This document shows, in pieces, positions 12,361-44,759 of a stretch of 64,000 nt of DNA; positions within the stretch are counted from its first letter, which is position 1; each line of letters opens with the position of its first letter. A program made the position numbers and the translations under genes. Origin of the DNA: Candidatus Tayloriibacteriota bacterium (GTDB taxonomy: Bacteria > Patescibacteriota > Minisyncoccia > Phycocordibacterales > PALSA-1337). Location of the stretch: positions 173,285-237,284 of the forward strand of contig PLXZ01000004.1 of assembly GCA_003151615.1 (NCBI GenBank), given 5' to 3'. Below the pieces are notes generated by a model, which did not search any database, was not told where the DNA came from, and worked only from the letters and a program-made list of their open reading frames with translations.

Positions 12361-12391
12361 AATCTATTCCTTTTATGGGAAATGTCAATGA
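12361..12391 (-). promoter_or_regulatory. Family-D promoter copy 2 (TTGACA-N17-TAGATT with TTCC-N7-GGAA spacer repeat) upstream of cupin gene
   Basis: Reverse complement reads tcaTTGACAtttcccataaaaggaaTAGATT, ~50 nt upstream of the 12305 start codon. Confidence 0.5.
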
Positions 12392-12455
12392 GGGAAAATA
12401 AAAAACGCCGTACCCGAAGGTCGTGCGTTATTGTAATCAGACTAGCGGTATTTTT

Positions 12456-13013
12456 TTACTGGGCGTCCTTATAGGCGCATTCATTAGTGCAATAAACCGC
12501 GACTTGATTTGGGGGAATGGGTTTACCGCAACCTTCTCTTTCGCACTTGCGGCCCATGGGATGTGTATTTGGGGCGAACCATCCTCTGTTCTCGCACGCG
12601 GAGCACCCATGGCCGCCGCAATTGTCGCATTGGACAGAATCGGTGGGATAATTTTTATCCTTGGGAATATCCATAATGTTTCGTTCAACCACTGCTTGTT
12701 CGCTTGCCTGGCACTCTTCCACATGACGTTTGTAAGCGCGATGATGAATGTTTTTACCACACTTGGGACAGACATTGCAACATGGTGCAAAGTGCATCGT
12801 GTGACTTCCAGGTTCATGGCATGGACAATGACAGATGTCAGGGTCGGAACAACAATCATTGACAAGAGAGGGCGGTTTCATTTTTGGTTTTGCCCGGAAT
12901 TCTGCGTTGACTGCTTCCGAGGATTTTTTCCACGTCTTCGGGTCACCCAAGCCCTTAAAGGCTTCTTTGCGGGAGATGGGCCGACCACCCAGAGGAGTTT
13001 TTGGTGTGCTCAT
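12456..13013 (-). CDS. Cysteine-rich hypothetical protein (multiple CxxC/CxC pairs, probable Zn-binding)
   Basis: 185-aa ORF with >20 Cys in paired motifs (CHCPCH, CNVCPKCG, CDNCGGHGCSAC, CEREGCGK). Chosen over the overlapping ORFs 12423..13103(+) and 12437..12865(-) for protein-like composition. Ambiguous. Confidence 0.4.
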   Translation of the reverse strand: MSTPKTPLGGRPISRKEAFKGLGDPKTWKKSSEAVNAEFRAKPKMKPPSLVNDCCSDPDICHCPCHEPGSHTMHFAPCCNVCPKCGKNIHHRAYKRHVEECQASEQAVVERNIMDIPKDKNYPTDSVQCDNCGGHGCSACENRGWFAPNTHPMGRKCEREGCGKPIPPNQVAVYCTNECAYKDAQ

Positions 13014-13104
13014 GGTCTTTGTTCTGGTTTCGACTCACTACGAGTAAGTCTGTTCGCTGATTCGCATACTACAACTTATCTACTCAATAGTCAATTTTTA
13101 TAAA

Positions 13105-13197
13105 TTAATTTCGATCCCTGTTCGGGTATCCCAAAACCACCTTGATATACAATGCTGAAAAAGTGCTCCGCATGTTGAACGAAGTCAGAGCCTGTAT
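13105..13197. repeat. Composite repeat: family B (tRNA-3'-end-like TTCGATCCCTGTTCGGGTATC...) fused to family C (GCTCCGCATGTTGAACGAAGTCAGAGCCTG)
   Basis: Family B recurs at 18031 and 18942. Family C recurs at 14058 and 28421, the latter being the 3' end of the serine recombinase ORF. Confidence 0.6.
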
Positions 13198-13205
13198 TTA
13201 GATAA

Positions 13206-13235
13206 TAAAAAAGAGGCGAACCGAAGTTCGCCTCA
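13206..13235 (-). terminator. Family-T terminator hairpin copy 2 (gaggcgaaccgaagttcgcctc)
   Basis: Same loop as copy 1 with compensatory stem changes. Downstream of 13252..13626(-). Confidence 0.55.
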
Positions 13236-13251
13236 TTGAATGTTAATGTTG

Positions 13252-13626
13252 TCAGTGAGCAAGGTCAGGCCGACCGATGGGAAGAAACGCACTCCCACCG
13301 AGGATCCGGAGCCATAGGTCGGACTTAAGCGGTCCGATCCATCCCTCCGGAATCACACCGTCTGCGATGATGTCCGCCGATATTGCCTTGGCCAACTCGG
13401 CACGTGCTTCCTGGCGGCATCCGTCTTTGCCCGGCCCGGTATCAATTTCGATGCTGATGATCGAGTAGTTCACGTCGAGCGGTCCGACGTCGTGGACACG
13501 AAGCAGGACGTCTTCCATGTTCATCTTCAGATGAGTGGCGACTGCCTTGTGGGCGCTGTCGCGGATTTTTACCACCGCAGCATTGTCAGCACGACTGCGA
13601 TCTCGCCATATGGTTACGAGGGGCAT
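13252..13626 (-). CDS. Tautomerase-superfamily-like protein (Met-Pro1 N-terminus), paralog 1
   Basis: Starts MPLVTIW... (Pro1 after the initiator Met is the catalytic hallmark of 4-OT/MIF tautomerases). AGGAG RBS 6 nt upstream of this Met. The 150-aa listed ORF extends upstream without an RBS. 92% identical paralog at 15515..15889. Confidence 0.45.
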   Translation of the reverse strand: MPLVTIWRDRSRADNAAVVKIRDSAHKAVATHLKMNMEDVLLRVHDVGPLDVNYSIISIEIDTGPGKDGCRQEARAELAKAISADIIADGVIPEGWIGPLKSDLWLRILGGSAFLPIGRPDLAH

Positions 13627-13657
13627 TTTGGTCTCCTTTCTTTTGGTTGCTGGTTGA

Positions 13658-13897
13658 TTAACTTTTGGTTGACTGTGCTTTTTTGTAAGCTTCGTCATCC
13701 GCAACGGTTTCCTTGATGCCGGCAGTAAGGATGTTTAATCCCATAAGTGTCAGGATTAATCCAGACGTAGTGACTGCTTTGAATAAAACGACTATGTTTC
13801 CTGGGTTTGCTGCGTATTGGGCAATATAGGGTGCCGCAACTCCTAAGCAGTATGATCCGATGATCATCAGTGCTCCGACAACTGTTTTAATTTTCAT
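13658..13897 (-). CDS. Small two-TM membrane protein
   Basis: 79-aa ORF with two hydrophobic helices and a charged C-terminus. Confidence 0.4.
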   Translation of the reverse strand: MKIKTVVGALMIIGSYCLGVAAPYIAQYAANPGNIVVLFKAVTTSGLILTLMGLNILTAGIKETVADDEAYKKAQSTKS

Positions 13898-13937
13898 ATT
13901 TCGATTTATTTTATTGGTTGAGTTTGTTGTAATCTCT

Positions 13938-13989
13938 AGTTAGCCGTTTCCCATAAGACACTTAAATGTCCTCTGGGAAACGGCTAACA
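13938..13989. repeat. Perfect 15-bp inverted repeat hairpin (agttagccgtttccca ...20 nt... tgggaaacggctaac)
   Basis: Read directly. Lies upstream of the 13897 start codon, not in terminator position. Confidence 0.5.
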
Positions 13990-14002
13990 CCAATAGATAT
14001 GT

Positions 14003-14087
14003 CAAAAAACTACTACCATATAATAGTAGCATAATATATAGAATATGTCAAACGTTAGCTCCGTATGCTGAACGAAGTTAGAACCTG
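14003..14087. repeat. Composite repeat: family E (CAAAAAACTACTACC...ATATGTCAAAC) + family C copy 2
   Basis: Family E recurs at 16301..16372. Family C copy 2 (gctccgtatgctgaacgaagttagaacctg) is 25/30 identical to copy 1. Confidence 0.55.
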
Positions 14088-14093
14088 TTTGAA

Positions 14094-14121
14094 ATAAAAA
14101 AGACGAACCGAAGTTCGTCTC
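14094..14121 (-). terminator. Family-T terminator hairpin copy 3 (agacgaaccgaagttcgtct)
   Basis: Identical to copy 1. Downstream of 14141..14821(-). Confidence 0.55.
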
Positions 14122-14140
14122 GTGTAAAGTAATTTACGTT

Positions 14141-14821
14141 TTAACTCACTTCTGGCCATTGTTCGATAAGGGCTTCCAAAAGTTGTTCCATTTCCCACCG
14201 GCCTCCACAGTGAGGGGTAATGATCAATGAATCCAGCACGTTTTGCTCGTTTTTTCTGGATGCTAGCGTATCAAGTTTTCTCTGTTTGTCACAATCACAG
14301 GTGACCCCCACGATGAACGCACGGGGAACATCCTGTCGAAATTGCTGTAGGAATTTCAGGCAGGCATCAAATGCACTGAGGCCCATGTATGACACCAAGA
14401 GAATATTTGTATCTGTGTCAATGTTTCGCGCGATTTTATTTTCAACTTGTGCTTGGGCTTGAGCACCGATTGTTTCTTCGCGCTCAAGATACGTGGCCAT
14501 CATTTCCATGTCTGCGCGAGCCATCGCCGTGGCGCCGAATAAGAGATCAAACGGCGGTCGGTCGTCATGCCGTCCATGTGACAGGGTGATTTGCAGACCC
14601 TGTTTCCCGGGAGTAGCAAGCAGTCCATCTTCATAACTGCCGATGCCGTTGTAGCTCACAAAGATTGCACGCAGTGTTTTTTTATTGCGAATCACATTTG
14701 GCAAGATGTCGCTAATAAATTGGTCAGTGTTTTTTTGTTGGATTAAGGATGTGGTCGGCACGCTGTACCTCCGTAGTTGTTGGTTTTTGTTTAAGGGAGA
14801 AGTAAAATACTTCTCTGACAA
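14141..14821 (-). CDS. Hypothetical protein
   Basis: 226-aa ORF, protein-like composition, no motif recognised. Confidence 0.45.
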   Translation of the reverse strand: MSEKYFTSPLNKNQQLRRYSVPTTSLIQQKNTDQFISDILPNVIRNKKTLRAIFVSYNGIGSYEDGLLATPGKQGLQITLSHGRHDDRPPFDLLFGATAMARADMEMMATYLEREETIGAQAQAQVENKIARNIDTDTNILLVSYMGLSAFDACLKFLQQFRQDVPRAFIVGVTCDCDKQRKLDTLASRKNEQNVLDSLIITPHCGGRWEMEQLLEALIEQWPEVS

Positions 14822-14865
14822 TTTGAGTAAAGACTACAATATATGTTTTACTTTGTAAATAGGTG

Positions 14866-14968
14866 GCTCCCCGAACATGAGATTGTTATAACTATATTTT
14901 CCGACTTTGATTACATGAATCGGTTGTACGGACAGCTGTTGTTTATGAAGGCGATGGGGAAATAAAAA
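14866..14968. repeat. Family A repeat copy 1 (GCTCCCCGAACATGAGATTGTTATAAC...CAGCTGTTGTTTATGAAGGCGATGGGGAAATAAAAA)
   Basis: ~100-bp element, ~85% identical copies at 17208..17310 and 18089..18179, truncated copy at 18997..19020. Confidence 0.6.
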
Positions 14969-15013
14969 TCTCCCCGTAGCTTTCGCTCGTAGGAGAGTTG
15001 TGTTAAAAACAGC

Positions 15014-15361
15014 TTATTTTTTTACGGAAGTGAAAGGTTTCTTATCGGTTGAACCGTTAAGATAATCTATCCACGCGCATTGCCGAAAATAAGTTGAACG
15101 GGCATACATCGTAATGAGTTCCTCGCGCTCGACCGGCGTTTTGGCTTCGTCCAGTTTCTGTCTGGCTTCTGGCGAGAGCGATTCATTATTCATGTGATCT
15201 CGCTCTTCGTCCGTCAACATTGTTAGTCTGCGTTCAAAGTTGAGCCGGTGGAGCAGGTCATCAATACTTTCAATGCGTTCGTCTTTTTTCAATGTGTCAA
15301 GAAATGCGAGCAGCACTTCTTCAGTTTTTTGAAACTCTGCAGTTTTTGTCGGTTCACTCAT
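15014..15361 (-). CDS. Hypothetical acidic protein
   Basis: 115-aa ORF preceded by the family-D promoter. Confidence 0.45.
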   Translation of the reverse strand: MSEPTKTAEFQKTEEVLLAFLDTLKKDERIESIDDLLHRLNFERRLTMLTDEERDHMNNESLSPEARQKLDEAKTPVEREELITMYARSTYFRQCAWIDYLNGSTDKKPFTSVKK

Positions 15362-15419
15362 AAAGGTATCTTTCTTCGAAGTGCCGTTTATGGATTTTTG
15401 GCACGGTTTCCTATCCCAA

Positions 15420-15450
15420 AATCTATTCCTTTTACGGAAAATGTCAATGA
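15420..15450 (-). promoter_or_regulatory. Family-D promoter copy 3 (TTGACA-N17-TAGATT, TTCC-N7-GGAA spacer repeat)
   Basis: Reverse complement reads tcaTTGACAttttccgtaaaaggaaTAGATT, ~55 nt upstream of the 15361 start. Confidence 0.5.
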
Positions 15451-15469
15451 ATACTCATAAATGAGTATA

Positions 15470-15499
15470 AAAAAAGGGGCGAACCGAAGTTCGCCCCAT
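15470..15499 (-). terminator. Family-T terminator hairpin copy 4 (ggggcgaaccgaagttcgcccc)
   Basis: Same loop with compensatory stem. Downstream of 15515..15889(-). Confidence 0.55.
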
Positions 15500-15514
15500 T
15501 GAGTGTTGATATTG

Positions 15515-15889
15515 TCAGTGAGCAAGGTCAGGCCGACCGATGGGAAGAAACGCACTCCCACCGAGAATTCGGAGCCACAGGTCGGACTTAAGCGGTCCGA
15601 TCCATTCCTCCGGAATCACGCCATCGGCGACGATGTCCGCCGATATTGCTTTGGCCAACTCGGCGCGTGCTTCCTGGCGGCATCCGTCTTTGCCCGGGCT
15701 GGTGTCAATCTCGATGCTGATGATCGAGTAGTTAACATCTAGCGGGCCGACGTCGTGGACACGAAGCAGGACGTCGTCCATGTTCATTTTCAGGTGAGTG
15801 GCGACTGCCTTGTGGGCGCTGTCGCGGATTTTTACCACCGCAGCATCGTCAGCACGACTGCGATCTCGCCATATGGTTACGAGGGGCAT
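15515..15889 (-). CDS. Tautomerase-superfamily-like protein, paralog 2
   Basis: MPLVTIWRDRSRADDAAVV..., 124 aa, differs from paralog 1 at ~9 residues. Flanking DNA is also duplicated. Confidence 0.45.
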   Translation of the reverse strand: MPLVTIWRDRSRADDAAVVKIRDSAHKAVATHLKMNMDDVLLRVHDVGPLDVNYSIISIEIDTSPGKDGCRQEARAELAKAISADIVADGVIPEEWIGPLKSDLWLRILGGSAFLPIGRPDLAH

Positions 15890-15929
15890 TTTGGTCTCCT
15901 TTCTTTTGGGTTGTTGGTTGAAGCTTCGT

Positions 15930-16199
15930 CTAATTCAGCAGGGTAATTATACAATCGCCATTTATCATGACGATATTTCCAGTTTTGTCGTCCTGGAAAT
16001 AGTATCCGTTGCTTTGGCTTTCGTTTTCAATCTTGCCCGAGGTGGTCCACTGACCGATGAGTTTGCCTCCTGAATAGAGTTCAACTTTATGTTTTTTGCC
16101 CCAAGCTGAGAAGGCCGCTCGGTTTGCGTTTGAGCAACCGGATAGCATACCCAAACTTAACCCGGCAACCAGTATCATCAGACTAATTTTAAGTTTCAT
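15930..16199 (-). CDS. Lipoprotein
   Basis: Internal start MKLKISLMILVAGLSLGMLSGC gives a signal peptide with lipobox L-S-G-C. Confidence 0.45.
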   Translation of the reverse strand: MKLKISLMILVAGLSLGMLSGCSNANRAAFSAWGKKHKVELYSGGKLIGQWTTSGKIENESQSNGYYFQDDKTGNIVMINGDCIITLLN

Positions 16200-16300
16200 T
16201 TTTTTCCTATTTTTGTAGTTGGTGTGCAAACCAAACTTGGCTGCATCTTTCAAGGCTCGAATAAGCCCTCAAAGACGCAGCCAATTTAATAGGGGAATTT

Positions 16301-16372
16301 CAAAAAACTATTACGTAACTATGATAGCATAAGATATAGTATATGTCAAACACGAGCTTCCCGAACGGGAAT
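16301..16372. repeat. Family E repeat copy 2 followed by GCTTCCCGAACGGG (degenerate GCTCC-core site)
   Basis: caaaaaactattacgtaactatgatagcataagatatagtatatgtcaaac parallels 14003-14057. Confidence 0.5.
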
Positions 16373-16449
16373 AAAAAAGGCCGCGCACTTAAGATGGCAC
16401 GGCCTTGGATATTTTGATTGAGGTTGTTTGACCCGCCTTGAGAAGATTG

Positions 16450-17112
16450 TTAATGGCAACCACCACTGTAGTGATAGACAGCTGCCTTTTCCCCCAACTG
16501 TTCTTGAATGTTACGATCCTCACAGATTGCAATGTCAACAATTTTGCCTTCGTAATGCGCTTTACGATACTCGTTGGCAGGCACGACTTGATATTTATTC
16601 CAAACAATCATTACAAGGTCTGCATTGCCGGTGTATTTATCTTTTTTGCCGAGCCATAGGACCTGATTGAATCCGAGTTTGTTAACCCCCTTTTTTGAAA
16701 GACTATTCTTTTTTGTCATAGTCTTTAGAATCTCTGCGGCAGGTATTTCCTCAGGAAAAAACAAATCCGTCGGGACTGCATTGTCTGGGAGTCGATCCAA
16801 GGTTTTTCCGACAGAAAATTTTTTTTCGCTCGGAACAATCGCATATAGCACAGGAGAGAATGGACTGTCACCATTGTAATCCTCAGGTCGTGACAATGCT
16901 AAGGTTGAATGACCTGCCGCGGGGCCAGTATGATGAATGTTTATCCCGTCGATCACCAGACCGCCGGAAGGTAGTATGAGTCGTTTCACTGGTCCAGATT
17001 GATATGATTTCCGCCAAGATTCAGGGCTTTTAGTTTCGTTTTTCATAAATTCTTTCGAAGTTCTTTGTTTCAAACCCCTAATTAGGTGGTTCAGATTTAC
17101 TGATGTGAACAC
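16450..17112 (-). CDS. Hypothetical protein
   Basis: 220-aa ORF. No motif recognised. Confidence 0.4.
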   Translation of the reverse strand: MFTSVNLNHLIRGLKQRTSKEFMKNETKSPESWRKSYQSGPVKRLILPSGGLVIDGINIHHTGPAAGHSTLALSRPEDYNGDSPFSPVLYAIVPSEKKFSVGKTLDRLPDNAVPTDLFFPEEIPAAEILKTMTKKNSLSKKGVNKLGFNQVLWLGKKDKYTGNADLVMIVWNKYQVVPANEYRKAHYEGKIVDIAICEDRNIQEQLGEKAAVYHYSGGCH

Positions 17113-17207
17113 TACAATATAAATATTAAAGAGTCAATAATTCGTAATGGTTCGAATCCCATTCTGGGTACGAAAAAAGACCCATATAAATGGTTCTTTT
17201 TTCACAT

Positions 17208-17310
17208 GCTCCCCGAACATGAGACTATTATAACCATATTTTCAGACTTAGATTACATGAGTCGGTTGTATAGTCAGCTGTTGTTTATGAAAGCGATGGG
17301 GAAATAAAAA
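17208..17310. repeat. Family A repeat copy 2
   Basis: gctccccgaacatgagactattataaccatattttcagacttagattacatgagtcgg... Preceded at 17140-17168 by a tRNA-3'-end-like fragment ggttcgaatcccattctgggta. Confidence 0.55.
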
Positions 17311-17358
17311 ACCGCCCAACAAAGTGCCGTTGGGTCGGCTTTTGAATATGGACGGGGT

Positions 17359-17598
17359 TTAACTACGCTCGATGACTTTAGCGGTAACGACTGATGTAGG
17401 AGGTCTTTCAAAAACTGAATCAGGCACTTCAAACTCTACCGTCACGACCGCTCGATCTTTGGGTTGAGACAGGTAGCCTTCACCGTAATGTTCTTGATTA
17501 TGTTCTTCAGATTGTTTCAACAACTCATCAATCCATTGTGAAGCCGCAATAGCCTTGTTGTAACCCTTTGAAACTTCGATATGCGCTGTAACTTTCAT
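17359..17598 (-). CDS. Hypothetical small protein
   Basis: 79-aa ORF. Confidence 0.4.
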   Translation of the reverse strand: MKVTAHIEVSKGYNKAIAASQWIDELLKQSEEHNQEHYGEGYLSQPKDRAVVTVEFEVPDSVFERPPTSVVTAKVIERS

Positions 17599-17638
17599 TG
17601 ATAGTATCCTTTCTTTTTGTTTCTAGTTTAAATACTGG

Positions 17639-17971
17639 TTAGCAACAACCGCCACCGCCTGAGCAATGGCCTCCAGTTGCCCGAATGTATCGGCGAAGCG
17701 AGTCAGTGTCATAATCCTCACCGCCGATTGCTCCTGCATATACTTGTATTTTAGCATCAGGGGCTTGCAGATGTTGGACGCTGTGTTTGTAGGGTGTCTG
17801 CTTTATAAGCGACTTCCAGTTATCCAAGAGTTTTTCTTTATCATCAGACCATGTGACAAAGTTTATTTCACCCGTCCCGCATTTACAGGAGAGAGAATGT
17901 TGATATCCACGTAGGTAGGCGTTCACCTCTGGACTCCTTCCACAACGGCAGGGAATTGGTGTCATATTCAT
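17639..17971 (-). CDS. Hypothetical Cys-rich protein ending CSGGGGCC
   Basis: 110-aa ORF with CRCG...CKCG and a C-terminal Cys/Gly cluster. Confidence 0.4.
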   Translation of the reverse strand: MNMTPIPCRCGRSPEVNAYLRGYQHSLSCKCGTGEINFVTWSDDKEKLLDNWKSLIKQTPYKHSVQHLQAPDAKIQVYAGAIGGEDYDTDSLRRYIRATGGHCSGGGGCC

Positions 17972-18030
17972 AATTTTGTTTTCAAGTTGTCTGATTCAAA
18001 GATTACCTCTAACTGATTAAAAGTCAATCA

Positions 18031-18179
18031 ATTTCGATCCCTATTCGGGTATCGCAAAACCACGTTGATATACAAGGCTGAAAAAAGTGCTCCCCGAACA
18101 TGAGATTGTTATAACCATATTCTCGGATGTGGATTACATGAATCGACTGTATGGTCAGCTGTTGTTTATGAAGGCGATG
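18031..18179. repeat. Composite repeat: family B copy 2 + family A copy 3
   Basis: atttcgatccctattcgggtatcgcaaaaccacgttgatatacaaggctgaaaaaagtGCTCCccgaacatgagattgttataacc... Confidence 0.55.
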
Positions 18180-18346
18180 TCAGTATGACTTGCAAGGACT
18201 TGCTTTTATACCATATATGTGATATAATTAAGCCAGTAATCCTTAATCGTATGGTTAAGTCGTTTCGGTACCCTTTGGGTATGTGAAATAAGGGGGTATG
18301 TGTTTTCCTCCACTAAGACACAAGTTCATTGGAAAGAAATTAACGT

Positions 18347-18880
18347 ATGTTAAAAGACTACATCATCATCAACGGCCCTCCGAAGTTCGAACTCATGCTC
18401 GCTTTATTCCATACTGCGAATATTGTGTTCAAAACTGAATGCGGTCAGGTCATCACTGTAATGGTAACCCAGGTCAAAAAACTTAACGACGATGGCCACG
18501 ACGCTTGGAATATCAGGGGCTTCATCATTTTGGATGACGGAGACTATCGGAAAGATAGTCACGAATGCAGAGCCATTTTCTCCAGCAAAAACCGTAAAGG
18601 TAAGCTGACAGACCTCGGTCTGAAAAACATGAAGTTCGAGCCTGAATACCTTGAACGTCTGTCTGATGACCAACTTCGGAAGAGGGTCGCTTCTGACCAG
18701 AAAATTGCAGAACATTTCAAGGCTATACTCGATCAATACATGTGCGGACTCAATCCCCGTGATCGGTTGATTGCGGAAGTTATTGCCGCGCAGGAGTTGG
18801 CCTTGGTGACGATGGATATTCAGTCCAAACACAGCAAATATACTAATGACCGTTCACGTAACACTGCGATTGCAGCGTAA
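18347..18880 (+). CDS. Hypothetical protein
   Basis: 177-aa ORF, the only plus-strand gene in the cassette region. Confidence 0.45.
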   Translation: MLKDYIIINGPPKFELMLALFHTANIVFKTECGQVITVMVTQVKKLNDDGHDAWNIRGFIILDDGDYRKDSHECRAIFSSKNRKGKLTDLGLKNMKFEPEYLERLSDDQLRKRVASDQKIAEHFKAILDQYMCGLNPRDRLIAEVIAAQELALVTMDIQSKHSKYTNDRSRNTAIAA

Positions 18881-18896
18881 GTGCGACAGACATTTG

Positions 18897-18937
18897 TAAT
18901 TAAAACGGCGACCAGAAATGGTTGCCGTTTTTTTATT
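18897..18937 (+). terminator. Rho-independent terminator
   Basis: aaaacggcgaccagaaatggttgccgttttttt hairpin + T7. Confidence 0.6.
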
Positions 18938-18941
18938 ACTT

Positions 18942-19020
18942 GAGTTCGATCCCTGCTCGGGTGCTCGAAAACTGTGTTGATACACAAGGTTGAAAAAAGT
19001 GTTCGCCGAACATGAGAGGA
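18942..19020. repeat. Family B copy 3 + truncated family A (gttcgccgaacatgagagg)
   Basis: gagttcgatccctgctcgggtgctcgaaaactgtgttgatacacaaggttgaaaaaagtgttcgccgaacatgag. Confidence 0.5.
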
Positions 19021-19042
19021 AGATACTCTGACGCATTAGCCT

Positions 19043-19626
19043 TTAACCAACTTGTCTGATCCAATCTCGGATAAACATGCCCACTCGTTCAATATCAGTC
19101 GGTGCTAGTTCACCACTATGCATGATAATATTTCTTGATTTTTCCAAAGTTTCAATTATTTGCTTTGCCCACTCCACTTTACCAACGTGCACTTCAAAAA
19201 ATTTCCAATTTTCAGGCTTAGCCATGATAGAGATGAGGTCTCCAAATTCAGTGTAATAAATCATTGAATCACCCCTAGCGGTAAGCCAGCGAACATCTTT
19301 TTCTGACTTTTTTCTATTCTCTGCATTAGTCCTGATTTCTTTCTTTACACATAAATCCCACCAATTTTCACCTTTTTCTTCAAGAAGTTTTTTAGCAATA
19401 AACTCTCTTACTGAATTTTCAAAGGAACAGATAGCAGTATACACAACTGCCATTCGTCTCGATTTTACAACGAATTCCTCGTCCATAAGCGGAAGACCTA
19501 GTCGTTTAGATGTTTCTGCTTCCCATACTTCGGAGAAATCACCCTTTGACTTTCTACCAGCCTTATCTAAAGCCTCTTCGGTTAAAAGCCCCCTAAAGGT
19601 AAAAGAATATAATCGGTTAGAATCCA
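19043..19626 (-). CDS. HEPN-domain protein (C-terminal Rx4H motif)
   Basis: C-terminus ...EKSRNIIMHSGELAPTDIERV carries the R-x4-H HEPN signature. Internal Met MDSNRLY chosen because the upstream partner ORF ends at 19629 (abutting genes). Confidence 0.45.
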
Positions 19627-19628
19627 TA

Positions 19629-20279
19629 TTAAAACAGATGTTTTTTAAGGCTTTTAAATAGTGCGTCGTATACAGCGGCATCCCTTGATTCCGGTAGGTG
19701 AATTTGGATATTGTAATGCAATTCTGTCTTACGTAGTTTCCCACCGACACTATCCTCGTCTGTGTCTTCCTGTGCGGCAGGTGGAGTCTCTTTTGCGGAC
19801 TCAGGCTTTTGATTGTCATTCTTCTCTTTACCGCCCTGAACTTTTTTTGCTGTATTACTCCACTCAGCATAAGCGGCAAGAGTCACGAATGTATTAGCCA
19901 TTAAATGCAAAACCTTATCTGAAATTTTACCTTGAGTTAATGTTCTAAGTTTGTTTTTGACTTCTGACTGCGTAAGTTCGTTTGCCTTTGTGTTAACAGC
20001 GAATAAATCCCCATATGCTACAGTAATCGCATTTGCCAAGACTTGTTTAGATTGAGATTGATCTAAAAAGTTGAAATATATTTCTGTTGGTACAGCATTG
20101 GCATCTAGAAACCCCAATCCTTTAAGTAGTCCTATGTACAGACGGTCATTTGTACTTTTAAACTCAAGACTTTCTAGGAATTTCTGCGTAAAGGTCTCAG
20201 GCGCTTTCGCCGTAATTAGACTGTTAAAAAATGACTCAAGATTTTTTGTCGTAACCAAATATGAGGGTGTAAGTGCCAT
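19629..20279 (-). CDS. Hypothetical protein, upstream partner of the HEPN gene
   Basis: Start at MALTPSYLVTTKNLESFF..., stop abuts the HEPN start. Two-gene operon. Confidence 0.4.
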   Translation of the reverse strand: MALTPSYLVTTKNLESFFNSLITAKAPETFTQKFLESLEFKSTNDRLYIGLLKGLGFLDANAVPTEIYFNFLDQSQSKQVLANAITVAYGDLFAVNTKANELTQSEVKNKLRTLTQGKISDKVLHLMANTFVTLAAYAEWSNTAKKVQGGKEKNDNQKPESAKETPPAAQEDTDEDSVGGKLRKTELHYNIQIHLPESRDAAVYDALFKSLKKHLF

Positions 20280-23058: not shown

Positions 23059-23060
23059 AT

Positions 23061-37494: not shown

Positions 37495-38308
37495 TTCCTA
37501 CGGATATATCAGTGATCAGTTTATTCTTGAAGTTAGAGAAGCAGTTGAAAAAGTGCGATGCAGTAAGGAAATATAGAGTAAAGTAGGCTTTCGTCTGACT
37601 GGCGGGCATGTTATCAATAAAATCAAAATTGCTATAATTCAGCCGTAACCGCATTTGATAAAAAAAGTCGAAAATTGAAACCGTCAGCGACTGTTTAAAG
37701 CTTTCCACCCGTTGTCGATTTCTGATTGTCCTTACTTCTGTGATGCCATGGGACAATTTCCAACTAGCAATCTTCTCGTTGGCAACCTTCTTCATTATCA
37801 ATTTGTAAACTACATCGTCCTCGGTGTTTCCTCTCAAGTTTGCGCCGGAGGTACTCCGAAAATTAAGGATAGACTTATCGAATACTTGATTAAAGAGAGG
37901 TTGGCTAAATTGAAGCGATCCGCTTGATAGTAATCCAGTGAAATGTTTTACGCAGTCTACGTGTTTTGCTCTGAGCTGCGATGTCTTGCCTGTCATGAGA
38001 CAGTCAATGACGCATAGCAGGTGATAGGCAAGGTAATAGGATTTGATAGGCAACCACAAAACGGCTGCGGTCGAGTATTCTTCATCCATTTGTACGATAC
38101 CACACTCGTCGTCGATTGATTTTTTCGTCAGCTCAATTAAACGTACCTTGTCTCTGATTGCAGGAAGCTCTGTTGGTGTGAGTAGTGCATTTGATGTAGA
38201 TGAAATTGATACGCCACGTGCAAGTTTTGCGAGGAGGGATATATATTTCAGATGCGTAGAAAAGTCCGGTCTGTTTAAGGGGGAGAATGGAGATTGTGTG
38301 AATAGCAT
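37484..38308 (-). CDS. Hypothetical protein
   Basis: 274-aa ORF convergent with, and overlapping by 11 nt, the 1148-aa gene. Confidence 0.4.
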   Translation of the reverse strand: MLFTQSPFSPLNRPDFSTHLKYISLLAKLARGVSISSTSNALLTPTELPAIRDKVRLIELTKKSIDDECGIVQMDEEYSTAAVLWLPIKSYYLAYHLLCVIDCLMTGKTSQLRAKHVDCVKHFTGLLSSGSLQFSQPLFNQVFDKSILNFRSTSGANLRGNTEDDVVYKLIMKKVANEKIASWKLSHGITEVRTIRNRQRVESFKQSLTVSIFDFFYQMRLRLNYSNFDFIDNMPASQTKAYFTLYFLTASHFFNCFSNFKNKLITDISVGISP

Positions 38309-38615
38309 ATACCCACTTTATTCCTCGTTAAGAAGAAAGTAAAGAAAGAAAGCGAGTAACAATACACTCTTTTGAGTGTATGTGGACTGATTTCAAATAG
38401 ATGGTATCATGTTGGTTACAATTGAATATTAAAGTAGCCTAAACCCTCGAGTAATCGGTGGCATGGTGAAAAGTCCCGTCGGAGCCAAAGAACCCATCAT
38501 ATGGGGTCGCTCTGACGGGCCGTATCGGGAAACTGATATGAGCAACTTCGGTTGCTACCCATGTGGTGGGCTTTTTGCTACCACTCATGGAATATTTACG
38601 CCCTAAAATATTCGC

Positions 38616-39614
38616 ATGAAAATCCTAATTACGTTCGCACTTGGAATCTTTAGCTTTTTCCATCAATCAATAACTCCTACCATTGCCATCTCAACAACCA
38701 CAGAGACGGCGACAACCTCTGTCTTTTCATCAGAAGCTACCACATCAGTGGCAGATTCTAATACTCAAAATGTAAACATATGCGAGAAAGAATATGGCAC
38801 GAATAGTTTAAACTCCGGTGGTGCTCCTGCCTGTGAATGCGCGCATGGATACGCCTGGAATAATGAATATACCAAATGCGTGACGCCAACGGTTGCTTGT
38901 TCAGAAATTAATGCCAATTGGGATGGTAAAATTACCAACAGTGAAGCTGAGTGCAATAGCTGCATGCCTGGATACGTTCCCAATAGTGCCGGGACAGCTT
39001 GCCAAATATCTAACGTATCAAATCCCCCAGAGACTACAACTAATTTAGAACAAGACTGTTTGAATAATGTCATGCAAAACGAGGCGCAAATGCTCCAAAA
39101 ATCTAACGCAGCACAAAAAACGTCAATACTATCAATAAATGACCAGCTCCAATTAAATAACGAGGCCATGTATGAGGAAAATCAGATTATGGCCATAGGA
39201 ATCAACGCATGCAAAGCTATGGCCGGGCAACCGACAACACCAATTCAATCTACTCCTGATCAACAGTACAGCGAGACAAACTCCTCTTACCAGCCAACCA
39301 TTCAAGACACAACAGGTCAAAATAACACTAACATTTATGGGGTGATCTACGCCCTCGACGGATCAACCGTTTCTGGAAATAGTGGAAATTATTCTCGAGT
39401 GGGCGACACGATTTATACCCCCGGGGGTGCAACTTACAGTGTTGTTGGTGACACCATATACGGACCGGGTGGGGTGACCTACAGTTTGGTCGGTAACACA
39501 CTTTATGGTCCCGGCGGTACGACCTACAACCTCACCGGCAATAAGATACAAAGTAGTGACGGTTCATCTGCCTCAAAGGTCGGCGACACCATCTACATCC
39601 AGCCGGGCAATTAA
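38616..39614 (+). CDS. Secreted Cys-rich protein with C-terminal 12-aa tandem repeats (VGDTIYxPGGxTYS)
   Basis: Signal peptide. Six+ repeats of GDTIYTPGGATYSVVGDTIYGPGGVTYSLVGNTLYGPGGTTYNL. Confidence 0.5.
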   Translation: MKILITFALGIFSFFHQSITPTIAISTTTETATTSVFSSEATTSVADSNTQNVNICEKEYGTNSLNSGGAPACECAHGYAWNNEYTKCVTPTVACSEINANWDGKITNSEAECNSCMPGYVPNSAGTACQISNVSNPPETTTNLEQDCLNNVMQNEAQMLQKSNAAQKTSILSINDQLQLNNEAMYEENQIMAIGINACKAMAGQPTTPIQSTPDQQYSETNSSYQPTIQDTTGQNNTNIYGVIYALDGSTVSGNSGNYSRVGDTIYTPGGATYSVVGDTIYGPGGVTYSLVGNTLYGPGGTTYNLTGNKIQSSDGSSASKVGDTIYIQPGN

Positions 39615-39710
39615 ACATATGATCATACTTCTAATCGTACTCCTGATAATTATTGGAATCGCTTGGTATATTCATGTGTTTGTGGACAAGTATAACGAAC
39701 GAGATAGACT

Positions 39711-40439
39711 ATGAAAAACAAGAAAAAAATAATCATATACGGAATCCTACTGGTCATCGCTATCCTAGCCGTCATTGTTCTCAAGTTCTCAGTGCAGGTA
39801 TATGAGCAAGAACAGATTAATACTGCAACCCCCGGCACAGACGATGATATAGATATGTCATGGCTCTATGGCACAGCCACCTCGACCATCCCCGGCATGG
39901 ATGATAGCGACAGTTATGTACTGCTCCAAAGTGACAGCGCCGTCCCTACCTACAAGGATTTCTTAAATAATGATCTTCAAAAAGTATGTCCTTTTTACAA
40001 GCCAGATGGTATTACCTATCGAGACTGTCTTGGTAATCTCTTGGCAGATAGAGAAAAAGCAGTGGAGCAAATGTATAGCGACCTTGTACGTGATACGCAA
40101 ATTGTTAGCAATGAAGCTATGGCGGAGGGACCGATAGGTGGAGGTCTTGTCGCTCGAACAAACGAATACTTTCTCACAAATCTAGCCATGCTCGAAAAAA
40201 CATGGAAACCGTACCGGGATGCACTCTGTAGTGCTGAACTTTCTGATACCTACAGTGGTAGTAATCAGTACGGCTATTTAACAACCTGCCAAATCTACGA
40301 GACTACTGCATACGAAACACGACTTATTGGATTTCGATATGAATATGTTGGTCAAGCTGTAGAGTGGCGCATACAGCAAAATGTTACTCCTAAACTTGAA
40401 ACGTTTAAAGAGTTGATGAGCAGGGAATCTAATCTATAG
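39711..40439 (+). CDS. Membrane-anchored protein with LprI-like (DUF1311) pattern
   Basis: N-terminal TM. C...C...W..YRDALCSAE...SGS....C....T..R.. spacing resembles the lysozyme-inhibitor LprI family. Confidence 0.4.
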   Translation: MKNKKKIIIYGILLVIAILAVIVLKFSVQVYEQEQINTATPGTDDDIDMSWLYGTATSTIPGMDDSDSYVLLQSDSAVPTYKDFLNNDLQKVCPFYKPDGITYRDCLGNLLADREKAVEQMYSDLVRDTQIVSNEAMAEGPIGGGLVARTNEYFLTNLAMLEKTWKPYRDALCSAELSDTYSGSNQYGYLTTCQIYETTAYETRLIGFRYEYVGQAVEWRIQQNVTPKLETFKELMSRESNL

Positions 40440-40534
40440 AAAGCTGTGGGGCTTTGTGTCGATATGGGTGAAAACATTAAACTGTAGCAGCTTAACTTGA
40501 AAAAGAAATATTCTCGGAGCATACTTGTCGTAAC

Positions 40535-41422
40535 ATGAGTGAAAAGAGTGATTCTACAAAAAATACAAGAGTCGTTTCTAAAATATATCAAGAAAACCTA
40601 GGACTCATGATAGCAGTGAGTGACTGGCTTTTTAGACATCACAGAAAAATAGTGACTGATTTCGATGAGAAATATAAGCTTTTTAATTCTGCTGAAATCC
40701 AAAAAGAAAAACCGTTCAAATGGACTCTCGATGAAGATCTGATGTTAGATTCAGGATTTTTAGACAAATATGATGAGGGTACACGATGGAACATGAATTA
40801 TATAAGAGAAAGAATGGCTAAAGATTTCAAAGATAGCATTCTCTCTAAAATAAAACTACCTCTCCATTTTCATTCACATCTTTGGAATCTAATAGCTTAC
40901 GGAGATGTAGGTGCACCAGGAGTTAATTTCTCTATTACTTTCCAGCAAATAGATCCAAAGTCCGATATCCGAAAGGCCACAGTTGGTGGTATGCAGTACG
41001 CCAGTCTTAATGTCTACAAGCCTCTTTCTACAGCAGAAAAGGTATTAGCCGATAAATTACTAAATGGACTCAACTCTATCGCACTTCATAAATCGGTAAG
41101 TGAAAAAAACAATTTTAATAATGTCGTCCTGACCCTCAAGATATTAGACGATACGATAAATCAGGGCCGATCAAAAAGAACGAAGAAATACACTGGCTAC
41201 TTAGCAGCTCTTGCTAAGGCTGTTGATAGAGGCGATCACCCTATTAAGGCACTTAGAAAATTGGAAAAACAACACCCAGATGATGTTGTCATCGAGAAAG
41301 GGACACAGATTACGAGTGACAAGATTTCCAAAAAATTGAGAGTTAGTAGTGGTGAAAATGTAAGGACTATTATCAAAAGACATAAGAAAAAAATGAACTC
41401 ATATTTCGAGAAATTGTTGTGA
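40535..41422 (+). CDS. Hypothetical protein
   Basis: 295-aa ORF, Lys-rich. Confidence 0.45.
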   Translation: MSEKSDSTKNTRVVSKIYQENLGLMIAVSDWLFRHHRKIVTDFDEKYKLFNSAEIQKEKPFKWTLDEDLMLDSGFLDKYDEGTRWNMNYIRERMAKDFKDSILSKIKLPLHFHSHLWNLIAYGDVGAPGVNFSITFQQIDPKSDIRKATVGGMQYASLNVYKPLSTAEKVLADKLLNGLNSIALHKSVSEKNNFNNVVLTLKILDDTINQGRSKRTKKYTGYLAALAKAVDRGDHPIKALRKLEKQHPDDVVIEKGTQITSDKISKKLRVSSGENVRTIIKRHKKKMNSYFEKLL

Positions 41423-42056
41423 CAATTTTCTAGTATAAAACTGTCACGGTAAAAATAAATGTGATGATATCTTGCTGCTAGAGCCTTTATTGGCTCAGAG
41501 TGGCGCTACTAAAACACTAGCCCCTGGCATCACTCCCAGGGGCTTTTGTTATGCATTTAAAAGAGAAAGCAACCCAAAAACTAATGGAAATCATCAGCAA
41601 AGATTATGGTGTTTCCCTTACTCATCAGGAAGCTGAAGAGTTTGGCCTTTCTTTAATACGCATTACAAAAATTGGACAGAATGTTTTTAATCGCAAAGAG
41701 CAAATACCAGCAGACTAGATCTGCCTCTTCAAGCCCTGGGCGAACCTATGTGGGGCTTGTAAAAATAAAACAGACATAGGACTTGATGGATTCCGTGATC
41801 TCGCGGTACAGAGATGGCTTATACGTTCAACGGAAAACCAGCAAGACCTCTGATTACGTTTCGCTAAAAGCATCTGATCGTAATCATGTTCGCTCTCGGT
41901 GGAACCATAGCCGAGTAGACAGCGGATGCGAAGTGCTCTCCGGGCTAAAGCGGATAAAAGAGCATAGCGATATCTCCTTTGTTGGGGGTAGGGGGGCTTT
42001 TGGACACTCTGGGCTTTCCGTTCAACAGATTAATCATTAAACTCGGTTTTATTCAA

Positions 42057-42668
42057 ATGAAAAAATCTTTACCAGAAAATAAGATCGGACAATATACACC
42101 CGAGGATGCTCGCAAGCTCGTCGAGTTTATCTTTCTTGAGAATAGTGATCCGCAGAACATTTACAGTGAGCTTGCTGAAAAAGTAATGCCAAAGTTTATG
42201 AAAGGAACCGATGAGGAGAAAGAGTGGGCGAGACGTCAACTTCTTGGAAGATCCAGTGAAGCTGTTATGACTGTTGGTCTTATAAATCACTATCAGATCA
42301 TTTATACAGCAGAGAAACAGTATGCATCGTTAATTCTGGAGATAACACGAAAAATCGAAAAGGAACATGAATGCACAACAGCAGTCGAGAAGATTTTGGC
42401 TGAGCAAATAGCTATGGCTCACATAAAAATCATTGATTATTCTCGGAGATTTGAAGAATGGTGTAGTAGTCCTCAATCAAGTAAGGTAGAGATAACAAAA
42501 TTTCTAGAGATGCTCGGCCGGCAAATAGACAAAGCAAATCGGCAATTGCATACAGCCATAATCGTATTGAGACAGATCAAGCAGCCGGCGCTATCTGTGA
42601 ATATCAATACAAAGAATATCTTTACTGCACAAAACCAACAAATCAATGATAACTCGCAAAAAACATGA
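42057..42668 (+). CDS. Hypothetical protein
   Basis: Internal Met MKKSLPENKIGQY chosen. The upstream part of the listed ORF has junk composition. Confidence 0.4.
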   Translation: MKKSLPENKIGQYTPEDARKLVEFIFLENSDPQNIYSELAEKVMPKFMKGTDEEKEWARRQLLGRSSEAVMTVGLINHYQIIYTAEKQYASLILEITRKIEKEHECTTAVEKILAEQIAMAHIKIIDYSRRFEEWCSSPQSSKVEITKFLEMLGRQIDKANRQLHTAIIVLRQIKQPALSVNINTKNIFTAQNQQINDNSQKT

Positions 42669-42997
42669 AATCATATAATCCGAATGATTCAGGAAAAAAG
42701 TTTCTGGTTGATGAATGTCAAAAAATAAGTATAACAACCTATATTCGACAAGCTAAAGCAAAGCTCAAGAATGCACTACTCATGAGCACACTTGAGATGG
42801 ATAGCAAGGCCATAGAATTGACCCCCTCAAAGACCTCATTCCATGGCGAAAGATATTGGTTCAAATGCCCTAAATGCAGTAAGCGCGCCGGCACATTATT
42901 CGTACATCCACTGAATCATGAAATTGGATGTAGAAAATGCCTTAACCTTGAGTACAGAAGCAGAAGATATAAAGGCATGATTGAGGAGTCATTTTAA
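42665..42997 (+). CDS. Hypothetical zinc-ribbon protein
   Basis: CPKCSKR...CRKC, 110 aa. Start overlaps the upstream stop (ATGA). Confidence 0.4.
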   Translation: MKSYNPNDSGKKFLVDECQKISITTYIRQAKAKLKNALLMSTLEMDSKAIELTPSKTSFHGERYWFKCPKCSKRAGTLFVHPLNHEIGCRKCLNLEYRSRRYKGMIEESF

Positions 42998-43056
42998 GCC
43001 CGTAGACTTATCTTGTATTAGCGGTATTGTATGTGTTAAGACAACTAACAAAAATA

Positions 43057-44759
43057 AAATGAAAAACGAAGCGCAAATAATAAATTACGATGTGTATCTC
43101 CGTAAATCGAGTGAGGCGGAAGATAAACAGATTCAGTCCATCGATGACCAGAGGCGAGAACTGAATGAATATGCAAATAAGAATAATCTTCACATAGTAG
43201 GTGAGTTTGAGGAATCGCAGAGTGCACATCATCCAGGGCGGCCGATTTTTAACAAAGTCATGAAAAGGATCGAGAAGGGAATATCGACTGGATTACTAGT
43301 TTGGCACGCCAACAGAACCTCGAGAAATCCAGTTGATAGTGGAACAATAATAAACCTTATCGATGAAAAGAAACTGATACATGTTAGGACGCCGTCACAT
43401 ATTTACGGTAATACTTCCACGGAGAAAATGATGCTTGCACTTGAGTGTATGATGGCTAAAAAAGATTCGGACGATAAAAGCGAAGCGGTAAAGAGAGGTC
43501 TACGCGGCAGATATAGAAAGGGACTTCCAAATGGCGTGGCACCTATCGGATTCCTAAATGATATGTCAGTTGAAAAAGGTAATCGGGGATGGCTTGTGGA
43601 CGCCGAAAAGCTCCCTCTTATTGGCCAACTTCTTCAGCTCTGTCTTACCGGAAGATATTCAACCAGAGATCTCCTAAATATCGCAAATGAGGATATGGGA
43701 CTCCGCACCCAACTCCGCAAAAAACAGGGAGGTAAAAAACTTGTGCTCTCATATCTGACAGATGTCATCCTTAAGGGAGAGGTATACGCCGGATTTTTCT
43801 ACACCGCTGATGGTGAGAGACATGATTTGGCTGAAAGCATCCCAAGACTAATTACAGAAGAACAACACTGGCAAATTAGAAAGATATTAGGTGATAGAAA
43901 CAGGCCTCGAGCGTCAAAAAATAAAATGACCTTCGCGTATACGGGACCGACAAAGTGTGGAGGGTGCGAGGGATCAATCACTGCTGAACACAAGTACCAG
44001 CTTATTTGCGCCTGTAAATTAAAGTTTGTTTATCTTAATAAGACACATTGTCCGGGGTGCGGAGTTTCAATAAAAAACATAGAAAAGCCCACCTATCTTC
44101 ATTACATTTATTACCACTGCACTAGGAAGAAAGATTTACTTTGCCGTGAGGGTAGTGTGCAGGAATTATACATAGATAATCATCTAGCAACATACTTCAA
44201 AGAAAATTTCAAAATCTCGAAAGCGCTCCATGAATGGTGTATCGAAAATATCGAAGCCCTTGATGCTGGCGATGCTAAAAACGGATCCGAAAAGAAAATA
44301 TCTTTGGAAGCGACCATCGCTAAAAAGCAAAATGAATACAAAGAGCTTGTTCTCATGAAGACCCGCGGACTTATCAGTGATAGCGATTTTGTAGAGCTTA
44401 AGACGAGCCAAAAAGCCGAAATTGAGGCCTTACAGCGGACTTTGAGCAATACGCCAAATAAGGACCAAACATCAAGCGTTAAAGCGCGTAGAGCCTTTAC
44501 GCTCGCATTAGGAATTGAAGAAGTATTCAAGAACGGAACACCTCAAGAGAAAAAAGAGGTGTTATCAGAGATTGGTTCGAACCTAACTTTAAAAGACAAA
44601 AAGCTCAATGTTTACAACACAGGAATCTATGAACGGATCATAAACGGACTACTTAGGGCGAAAGCAGAAAATCCTCGGTTCGAACCTGAATATATCTTAG
44701 ATACATCAAGTCAGAATAAAGATTTTATGCTCGCACGACCAACTCTGCTCCGGGAGTAG
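43057..44759 (+). CDS. Large serine recombinase (second copy, distinct sequence)
   Basis: YDVYLRKSSEAEDKQIQSIDDQRRELNEY (resolvase catalytic domain with Ser), recombinase domain, CGGCEGS...C zinc ribbon. Stop codon lies inside the 3' end of the adjacent tRNA gene. Confidence 0.75.

Follow-up and report, generated by a model that had tools for sequence, protein, structure and literature searches.

We analyzed a 64,000-nucleotide stretch of the 562,931-bp metagenome contig PLXZ01000004.1 of a Candidatus Tayloriibacteriota bacterium (positions 173,285–237,284 of the forward strand; hereafter the window), in which AT-rich DNA carrying two large serine recombinase (LSR) genes ends at a tRNA-Asn(GUU) gene. 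The region is probably an additive island, built up as elements integrated site-specifically and in succession at the outermost 3' end of this tRNA gene in a Paceibacteria-like host of the Candidate Phyla Radiation (CPR). Two elements stand in tandem. Element 1 (19005–28420, 9.4 kb) carries LSR1 and is delimited by a homologous element in a related genome (L096, 3198–11585; comparison loci are designated by L numbers). Element 2 (28426–44747, 16.3 kb) carries LSR2, lies next to the tRNA gene, and is delimited by its absence between the LSR1 homologue and tRNA-Asn of the same relative (L016/L096). Together the two elements occupy 19005–44747 (25.7 kb).

Two serine recombinases read into attachment-like sequences

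LSR1 (26838–28457, plus strand) contains the Pfam Resolvase (PF00239, 5.6e-26) and Recombinase (PF07508, 4.2e-15) domains. LSR2 (43059–44759, plus strand) matches Resolvase (2.4e-19) and aligns over residues 4–342 to the PHROG integrase family phrog_95 (1.3e-45), which LSR1 matches as well. The two proteins share 22% identity and both open reading frames (ORFs) are full length, bearing out the two non-identical recombinases of the initial annotation, apart from the LSR2 start, given there as 43057 but lying two bases out of frame with the ATG at 43059. Within a 35-sequence alignment of the LSR1 family, Y20, R22, V23 and S24 are invariant; C288, C303, C327 and C333 are invariant or nearly so across the family, and PF13408 is found in many homologues. 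By eye, the cysteines of LSR2 follow the pattern CGGC...C.C...CPGC...C. More than 400 proteins are homologous to LSR1 at E<1e-20; where a source is named, it is a Patescibacteria lineage. Relatives of LSR2 (29–33% identity) adjoin tRNA-Asn in L005, L007 and L096.

Each recombinase gene sits at the right end of its gene block with its 3' end inside an attachment-like sequence, as first described from the sequence. The LSR2 ORF runs 12 nt into the 3' end of the tRNA gene, which thereby contains its final codons and stop. The last 37 nt of LSR1 lie within a 38-nt repeat (28421–28458), and the protein's tail (...LRLRMLNEVRTCI) is encoded by an arm, termed R-a, that belongs to element 2, as seen by comparing it with the tails in L016, L011 and L007.

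A related genome lacks element 2 and carries the opposite order

The nearest genomes are CPR metagenome-assembled genomes labelled Paceibacteria, Parcubacteria, Wolfebacteria or Campbellbacteria. The most informative comparison comes from a 58,978-bp soil contig (L016/L096/L097) that encodes an LSR1 homologue with 59% identity. There, the element-1 homologue abuts an intron-containing tRNA-Asn followed by HPF, fmt, def and priA, with no element 2 in between. The backbone of element 1 is recognizable throughout: a HEPN protein (80% identity), a DUF5343 protein (81%), a 196-aa protein (68%), two small ORFs (80% and 66%) and LSR1 itself (59%), together with a LOOT RNA and a helix-turn-helix (HTH) protein. 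Element genes are 66–81% identical between the two genomes, compared with 56–62% for fmt, def, priA and HPF. At its far end, the L096 element retains a complete arm of a second type, R-b (3198–3300). A further recombinase gene has its 3' end before this arm, and its product shares 31% identity with LSR2 and 23% with LSR1. The two element types therefore occur in opposite order at the same tRNA gene, an arrangement that requires independent insertions.

Compared with L096, some 100 nt are missing from element 1 of the window, among them the outer half of the R-b arm, and its core has two mutated bases. Its decayed far arm (19000–19017, minus strand) has the core changed to GTTCG, keeps the inner R-b sequence CCGAACATGAGA and lacks the outer GGTTATAAC-type part. 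Because the outer far arm and two core bases are gone, element 1 is probably fixed in place and no longer excisable.

These comparisons bear on a first alternative, namely that the whole region is one ancient, immobile accessory segment, with recombinases that are relics or domesticated enzymes (e.g. invertases) and repeats that are regulatory or products of decay. Such a segment would account for exact proteins without variant contexts, for the decay of the far arm and core of element 1, and for a GC content that rises gradually away from the tRNA, as expected of old, ameliorating DNA. We nevertheless consider it very unlikely: L016/L096 has no element 2 between the LSR1 homologue and tRNA-Asn and shows the swapped order; an arm in L007 matches R-a at 29 of 33 nt despite only 48% identity in fmt; both LSR ORFs are full length; and adjacency to tRNA genes recurs in the family. 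Tandem integration at one tRNA gene, as the initial annotation had proposed, is favored by the missing element 2, the reversed order and a hexanucleotide, GCTCCG, common to the junctions. The same annotation had held that orthologous genomes with this gene order but without recombinases would speak for an ancestral region; the element-1 homologue in L016/L096 keeps its LSR, and the tRNA-Asn locus occurs in relatives both with and without LSRs.

All junctions share the 3' terminus of tRNA-Asn

Every aligned repeat-bearing site contains GGAGC, the 3' terminus of tRNA-Asn, and combines its two sides in varying ways. Read on the tRNA strand, the upstream side is the tRNA itself, an R-a arm (GCAGGTTCTGACTTCGTTCAACATGC) or an R-b arm (GGTTATAACAATCTCATGTTCGG); the downstream side is the tail of an LSR gene, a promoter (TTGACA-N17-TAnnnT) or a sequence termed L-a. 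R-a sites start at 28421, 14058 and 13165, with a degenerate copy at 9135; R-b sites start at 18089, 17208 and 14866, with partial copies at 19000 and 16356. The 38-nt repeat noted earlier as family C corresponds to the three intact R-a sites (13165–13202, 14058–14095 and 28421–28458).

At the right end of element 2, the core GCTCCG (44748–44753), complement of the tRNA terminus ...CGGAGC, joins the 3' end of LSR2, which would be the P' arm of the element, to the tRNA. Between the elements, the core GCTCC (28421–28425) joins the 3' end of LSR1 to R-a (28426–28458, minus strand; on the tRNA strand GCAGGTTCTGACTTCGTTCAACATGC followed by GGAGC; repeat family D6), the putative far, or P, arm of element 2. 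Only GCTCCG is common to the junctions in L016 (...GTTATATTATCTCTGACTGG-GCTCCG-GGAGCAGGGATCGAACC), at window position 28421 (...GTTATATTAGGAGGTCTACG-GCTCCG-CATGTTGAACGAAG) and at window position 44748 (...CGACCAACTCT-GCTCCG-GGAGTAGGGATCGAACC). The tRNA 3' end was sought elsewhere but has no second copy within 3 mismatches, and the classical model of a displaced tRNA fragment was dropped for that reason.

Two further features were seen around the arms. Conservation of the R-b sites extends about 85 nt past the 23-nt arm (14866–14975, 17208–17317 and 18089–18198; 77–88% identity within the window) and is still recognizable in L096 (3198–3300); these extensions could serve accessory factors as sites. 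The L-a arms (13110–13164, 17148–17207, 18033–18088 and 18945–18999) contain a plus-strand 3' fragment of another tRNA (TTCGATCCCTnTTCGGGTATC) without its 5' half, 35–55 nt from the junction core and in reverse complement; a similar 3' tRNA fragment lies directly downstream of tRNA-Asn in L006 (10320–10400). Scans of viral contigs with the R-b and R-a arm patterns returned nothing or 15 unrelated coding-sequence matches.

A 5-nt spacing difference separates the arms from the tRNA

The distance from GGTT to GGAGC is 19 nt in the P-type arms versus 14 nt in real tRNA-Asn genes, where GGTT belongs to the T-loop. Across the window and L002–L096, GGTT-19 nt-GGAGC occurs 12 times, as against 3–8 times for neighboring spacings, and about 8 of the 12 are identified arms (four in the window, the others in L006, L007 and L020). 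The T-loop-like motif reads GGTTCTGAC in R-a, GGTTATAAC in R-b and GGTTCGATC in the tRNA; the closely matching arm of L007 lies at 14713–14745. Direct-repeat searches in L005, L007 and L011 had given no far ends, for which the spacing pattern was needed.

In silico, the outer motif lies at about positions 16–24 in the P arms and 11–19 in the tRNA arm. These are the positions of the motif bound by the zinc-ribbon (ZD) domain of the LI integrase, 16–24 in attP and 11–19 in attB (PMC3783163). On the other side of the core, the LSR1 tail contains GTTATATTA about 10 nt from the core, and the closer CPR relatives of LSR1 have a conserved GGTTATAATAA about 10 nt before the tRNA end, whether the tRNA is Asn, His or Thr. 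When attP of element 1 is reconstructed from the R-b arm and the LSR1 tail, GGTTATAAC and its inverted copy stand 49 bp apart (outer edges), centered on GGAGC. On the LSR2 side, an inner inverted repeat, CGTTCAAC-12 nt-GTTGGTCG, is centered on the same bases. A third complete example is L026, in which a far arm 6.8 kb from the tRNA junction carries TTATAAC in matching register.

The association with tRNA genes extends well beyond the window. Among 32 scanned metagenomic loci with LSR1 homologues, 19 have a convergent tRNA gene (Asn, His, Thr, Ala, Arg, Val or Glu) that adjoins the ORF end or overlaps it, 18 of them found by ARAGORN and the last being L016 with its intron-split tRNA-Asn. In three further loci (L017, L020 and L025) the LSR ORF ends on a P-type arm, which indicates a tandem junction or a free attP. 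A 2014 survey stated that serine integrases were not known to use tRNA genes and that only tyrosine integrases target them. Our literature search, whose coverage is incomplete so that a prior description is possible, found no account of serine integrases that target tRNA genes or of serine-recombinase elements in CPR bacteria.

Since islands in tRNA genes are classically the work of tyrosine integrases (PMC4383910) and the arms resemble the 3' half of tRNA-Asn, the tRNA-like repeats might also be displaced fragments left by tyrosine-integrase islands, with the serine recombinases as unrelated cargo. This explanation is scarcely credible here. No tyrosine recombinase was found by Pfam among the ORFs from 11.9 to 44.8 kb; identity at the junctions spans only 5–6 nt, as against the 15–50 nt typical of tyrosine systems; a constant 5-nt insertion sets the arms apart from the tRNA in independent lineages; and in all cases the LSR ORF extends as far as the junction.

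The target tRNA-Asn is split by a group I intron

The tRNA-Asn(GUU) gene lies on the minus strand at 44748–45091, with exon 1 at 45091–45058, a 272-nt group I intron at 45057–44786 and exon 2 at 44785–44748. ARAGORN with default settings reported no tRNA in the window; with introns allowed, it placed tRNA-Asn(gtt) at 45091–44747, interrupted by 272 nt of intron; once spliced, the sequence was again called, and folds, as tRNA-Asn. Rfam detected Intron_gpI at 44793–45067 on the minus strand (52.1 bits; gathering threshold 50). The intron sits in the anticodon loop, pairs CUGU|AA with UUGCAG in P1 and has its 3' splice site after ...GAUG. The intron-containing tRNA recognized earlier at the right end of the island is thereby identified as tRNA-Asn(GUU) with a group I intron.

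The order priA–def–fmt–HPF–tRNA-Asn is conserved in relatives, whether or not an LSR adjoins it. A comparison of the tRNA with that of related genomes, called for in the initial annotation, gave a mixed picture: tRNA-Asn is uninterrupted in L007, L009 and L011 and intron-containing in L003, L005, L006 and L016. Because the gene downstream of fmt/HPF in relatives may be intron-free or intron-containing, the intron is, on this distribution, a lineage feature unrelated to the island. In L003 (12650–13045) and L006 (9655–10277), the tRNA-Asn group I intron holds an HNH-type homing-endonuclease-like ORF (...CANCHREV...); the 272-nt intron of the window has no such ORF.

Composition and extent of the island

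GC content is 0.399 in element 1 (19005–28420) and 0.407 in element 2 (28426–44747), about 7 points under the flanks (0.484 in 1–9134, 0.522 in 45092–49365 and 0.449 in 49366–64000). Along the window it runs at 0.47–0.50 over 1–13 kb, 0.35–0.44 over 17–45 kb, 0.49–0.55 over 45–50 kb and 0.40–0.50 beyond, and away from the tRNA it climbs in steps of 0.41, 0.40, 0.44, 0.47 and 0.48. Composition computed in windows is hence not uniform, with the island below its flanks, and the AT-rich island of the initial annotation holds for 17–45 kb. It does not hold for the whole span of 12361–44759 claimed there: GC is 0.45–0.47 at 12–17 kb, the two elements fill only 19005–44747, and 13165–19004 (GC 0.443) is an array without a recombinase. 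Nor is there a boundary feature at 12361, which falls inside a promoter-like repeat (12345–12391). The 47-nt repeat in question also occurs at 10053–10099 and 15404–15450, in each case reading TTGACA-N17-TAGATT on the minus strand, ahead of genes on that strand; it is a putative shared strong promoter, with 12361 inside one copy.

A weak, degenerate R-a-like site lies further left (9135–9160, minus strand; TTGCTTC plus TTATGTTGAACGAAGTTAAA, four arm mismatches, core GAAGC). It may mark where the additive island formerly ended, in which case the island would reach further left. The left-flank genes of the window have no counterparts in the relatives compared, which leaves the left edge of the whole island without a comparative marker. 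On the other side of the tRNA, a 1391-aa ORF (49460–53635) with a transglutaminase-like core near its C-terminus has a GC content of 0.40 and the strongest GC skew of the window (≤0.26), so that the "core" side of the tRNA is compositionally non-uniform too.

Recombinase-less modules border element 1

Outside both elements, the array at 13165–19004 consists of six modules of 0.8–1.5 kb without a recombinase (repeat families D1–D7). On the minus strand, each is laid out as core, promoter or L-a arm, one to three ORFs, usually a terminator, and a P-type arm; most have a TTGACA-N17-TAnnnT promoter, minus-strand ORFs and a hairpin terminator. The boundaries are R-b arms at 18089–18116, 17208–17235 and 14866–14893, a degenerate one at 16356–16375, and R-a arms at 14058–14095 and 13165–13202. 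No Pfam family was assigned to the module ORFs. A 300-nt segment is duplicated at 92% identity in two different modules (13207–13506 and 15470–15769); it comprises a terminator and most of a 124-aa ORF starting MPLVTIW (Pro after Met, as in tautomerases, with no Pfam match).

The modules may be what is left of decayed elements, or they may be units mobilized in trans. Recombinase-less units also occupy the tRNA-proximal position elsewhere: a 0.86-kb unit lies between tRNA-Asn and an R-a-type arm in L006, and a 3.2-kb unit (11514–14745) lies in the same setting in L007, adjoining a truncated LSR2-like gene. The latter resembles a diversity-generating retroelement (DGR), with RVT_1, a bAvd-like protein and two 120-nt repeats that are 78% identical. 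The tRNA-proximal slot of L007 should be its newest insertion. Both units favor the trans-mobilized reading of the modules without proving it.

Defence cargo and a conserved leader RNA

Domain searches confirmed the restriction–modification, HEPN, NUDIX and TerS-like HTH genes recognized in the initial annotation. In element 2, these are a type II restriction–modification system (28535–32128; two D12 methyltransferases and an AlwI-like restriction endonuclease), the TerS-like HTH gene (32208–32654; phrog_4102, 7e-14) and NUDIX (32698–33108), followed by a 1148-aa Dsr1-like protein (34048–37494; padloc) that matches residues 294–1215 of the Dsr1 profile (8.8e-38). It is without the N-terminal region that holds the SIR2 domain in Dsr1, and a convergent 274-aa ORF (37484–38308) overlaps the end of its gene. 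Further proteins of element 2 have no assigned family. Element 1 encodes HEPN_Swt1 (19043–19627) and DUF5343 (19629–20279), together scored by padloc as the candidate defence system PDC-M34 (pair M34A/B); the mechanical ORF list over-extends HEPN_Swt1 (19043–19879 versus 19629–20333), while the gene calls of the source contig are adjacent and non-overlapping. The remaining cargo includes a DnaJ-domain protein, a peptidoglycan (PG)-binding protein, the 196-aa protein and an HTH/Rep-like protein (25724–26203).

Directly upstream of LSR1 lie two small translationally coupled ORFs (62 and 67 aa; 26434–26822, plus strand) with weak Pfam matches only (SHOCT-like and DpnD/PcfM). They occupy the same position in L016/L096 (80% and 66% identity) and are absent upstream of more distant LSR1-family members, in which no family-wide directionality factor candidate emerged. 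They are candidate accessory or directionality factors, the latter role having been suggested in the initial annotation.

Each element carries one LOOT RNA (Rfam RF03000; gathering threshold 46.4 bits), both matching the covariance model over its full length. The first (24454–24575, minus strand; 82.4 bits) lies 5' of the leftward cargo operon of element 1, the second (38436–38556, plus strand; 84.3 bits) 5' of ORF 38616–39614 in element 2. LOOT also occurs 1.8–3.6 kb upstream of the LSR gene in L016 (3513–3634), L017 (2317–2437), L019 (1371–1493) and L029 (2862–2985), and it adjoins an LSR2-like gene in L098 (about 4990–5110), an IMG/VR contig found with a LOOT-derived pattern. A promoter-like ACAACTGAATAT is conserved before LOOT, and the RNA extends to the start codon of varying downstream genes; because of these two features, it looks like the 5' leader of the element's cargo operon. 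A literature search returned nothing on the motif itself.

The TerS-like HTH gene, the phrog_95 matches of both LSRs, the filing of the L098 locus in IMG/VR and the weak endolysin-family matches of the PG-binding protein raise the possibility of degenerate prophages or phage satellites (resembling phage-inducible chromosomal islands) that use serine integrases. This origin is unlikely. PHROGs searches of 20 element proteins found no capsid, portal, large terminase or convincing tail gene; the lone tape-measure match (ORF 23061–23792) is weak and coiled-coil (E=1.7e-5); defence systems dominate the cargo; and LSR1 is only 22–27% identical to any integrase in 50,697 phage records. Of the virion structural and packaging set that marks a prophage, the elements thus offer only the TerS-like HTH and the weak endolysin-type and tape-measure matches.

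A model for serial integration

The features described above are consistent with the following sequence of events. Element 1 would have integrated first, and element 2 would then have entered the regenerated tRNA gene, displacing element 1 outward; element 1 would afterwards have lost part of its far arm. The LSR gene lies at the tRNA-proximal end of each element, and its last codons would form the P' arm of attP, so that after integration its ORF reads over the crossover, from LSR2 into the tRNA and from LSR1 into the far arm of element 2. Strand exchange, including the exact crossover dinucleotide, would take place within GGAGC, which comprises the end of the acceptor stem, the discriminator and one base more; as GGAGC is common to both partners, the tRNA would be regenerated. 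The P arm would mimic the tRNA T-loop, its motif standing 5 bp farther from the crossover than that of the tRNA, an attP/attB geometry presumably read by the zinc-ribbon domain. Were element 2 still mobile today, its circular form is predicted to contain ...CGACCAACTCT GCTCC GCATGTTGAACG... (also written ...ATGCTCGCACGACCAACTCT-GCTCC-GCATGTTGAACGAAGTCAGAACC...), and the empty site ...GGAGGTCTACG GCTCC GGGAGTAGGGATCG... (also written ...AAAGTTATATTAGGAGGTCTACG-GCTCC-GGGAGTAGGGATCGAACC...).

Several points weigh against this model. Serine integrases normally refuse attP x attL, and insertion at an occupied site would require either that pairing be relaxed or that the P' arm be accepted as B'. 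Exact-protein look-ups with LSR1, LSR2 and two module proteins yielded no excised circles, empty sites or variant contexts, the exact proteins being found only on the source contig and two contigs of the same context. Core proteins of the relatives are 48–62% identical to those of the window, with no truly isogenic empty site among them. The Recombinase domain PF07508 was not detected in LSR2 by Pfam (E<=0.01), and in the aligned junctions the LSR2 P' arm has an inner inverted repeat only, with no outer GGTT-type motif. Finally, the spacing rule was recognized after looking at the data, so that the pattern test (4 matches versus 0.08 expected) is post hoc.

Relation to known systems

In staphylococci, the staphylococcal cassette chromosome (SCC) elements, including SCCmec, enter the 3' end of rlmH/orfX through the action of large serine recombinases (Ccr) and form tandem arrays and recombinase-less units. 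The island would share with them LSR-mediated insertion at the 3' end of a conserved gene without inactivation, and it has tandem arrays as well as recombinase-less units with identical bounding sites. Its target, however, is a tRNA rather than a protein-coding gene, there is one recombinase per element instead of a CcrA/CcrB pair, the core is 5–6 nt, the recombinase ORF spans attP, and the hosts are CPR bacteria; the likeness considered is one of organization.

With phage serine integrases (Listeria A118/LI, Bxb1, phiC31 and TP901-1), the recombinases appear to share the order of resolvase catalytic domain, recombinase domain (detected by Pfam in LSR1) and putative Cys-rich zinc ribbon, and the TP901-1 catalytic domain is a weak sequence match to the recombinase here. 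In both, the outer att motif is set 5 bp farther from the center of attP than from that of attB (PMC3783163). Identity to phage integrases is only 22–27%, however, the elements lack virion genes, attP overlaps the 3' end of the integrase gene, and attB would be a tRNA acceptor stem plus T-arm.

Like Islander/TIGER tRNA islands and the tycheposons of Prochlorococcus, the island reflects integration at a tRNA 3' end with regeneration of the gene, places the newest element at the tRNA with older decaying units outward, and carries defence and niche cargo. It differs in using a serine rather than a tyrosine recombinase and in having no long identity block or true displaced tRNA fragment; Islanders are defined by a tyrosine integrase and displaced tDNA with a long identity block, and neither is found here. 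A tycheposon preprint lists a large serine recombinase in 27 of 937 elements and gives no target.

The modules recall integron cassette arrays in their size (0.8–1.5 kb), their one to three ORFs, their recombination-site-like ends and their position near a site-specific recombinase. Unlike integrons, they come with no IntI tyrosine recombinase and no attC hairpins, and most have their own TTGACA-N17-TAnnnT promoter and hairpin terminator.

Implications for CPR genomes

A broader interpretation, which we put forward only tentatively and hold to be somewhat less probable than its failure, joins these strands. A large, mostly CPR clade of serine integrases may use the universally conserved tRNA T-loop (GGTTCGAnnC) as its zinc-ribbon attB motif and the acceptor end as its crossover, and may switch among tRNAs (Asn, His, Thr and others); its genes would span attP, with the C-terminal tail rewritten upon integration; recombinase-less units of promoter, ORF(s), terminator and arm, such as the DGR-like cassette of L007, would be mobilized in trans in the manner of an integron; and LOOT would be the leader of the cargo operon. 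If so, these would be the first serine integrases described as tRNA-specific.

If the att model alone is correct, the 2014 statement that tRNA genes are targeted by tyrosine integrases only would need revision, and the orphan LOOT RNA would gain its first genomic context. The rule of 14 versus 19 nt from GGTT would delimit such elements in thousands of CPR genomes, and the integrases, having natural targets in tRNA genes of every cell, would be of interest for genome engineering. CPR genomes are tiny and their routes of gene gain are little known; the window offers a concrete one, the serial, tRNA-directed insertion of defence islands.

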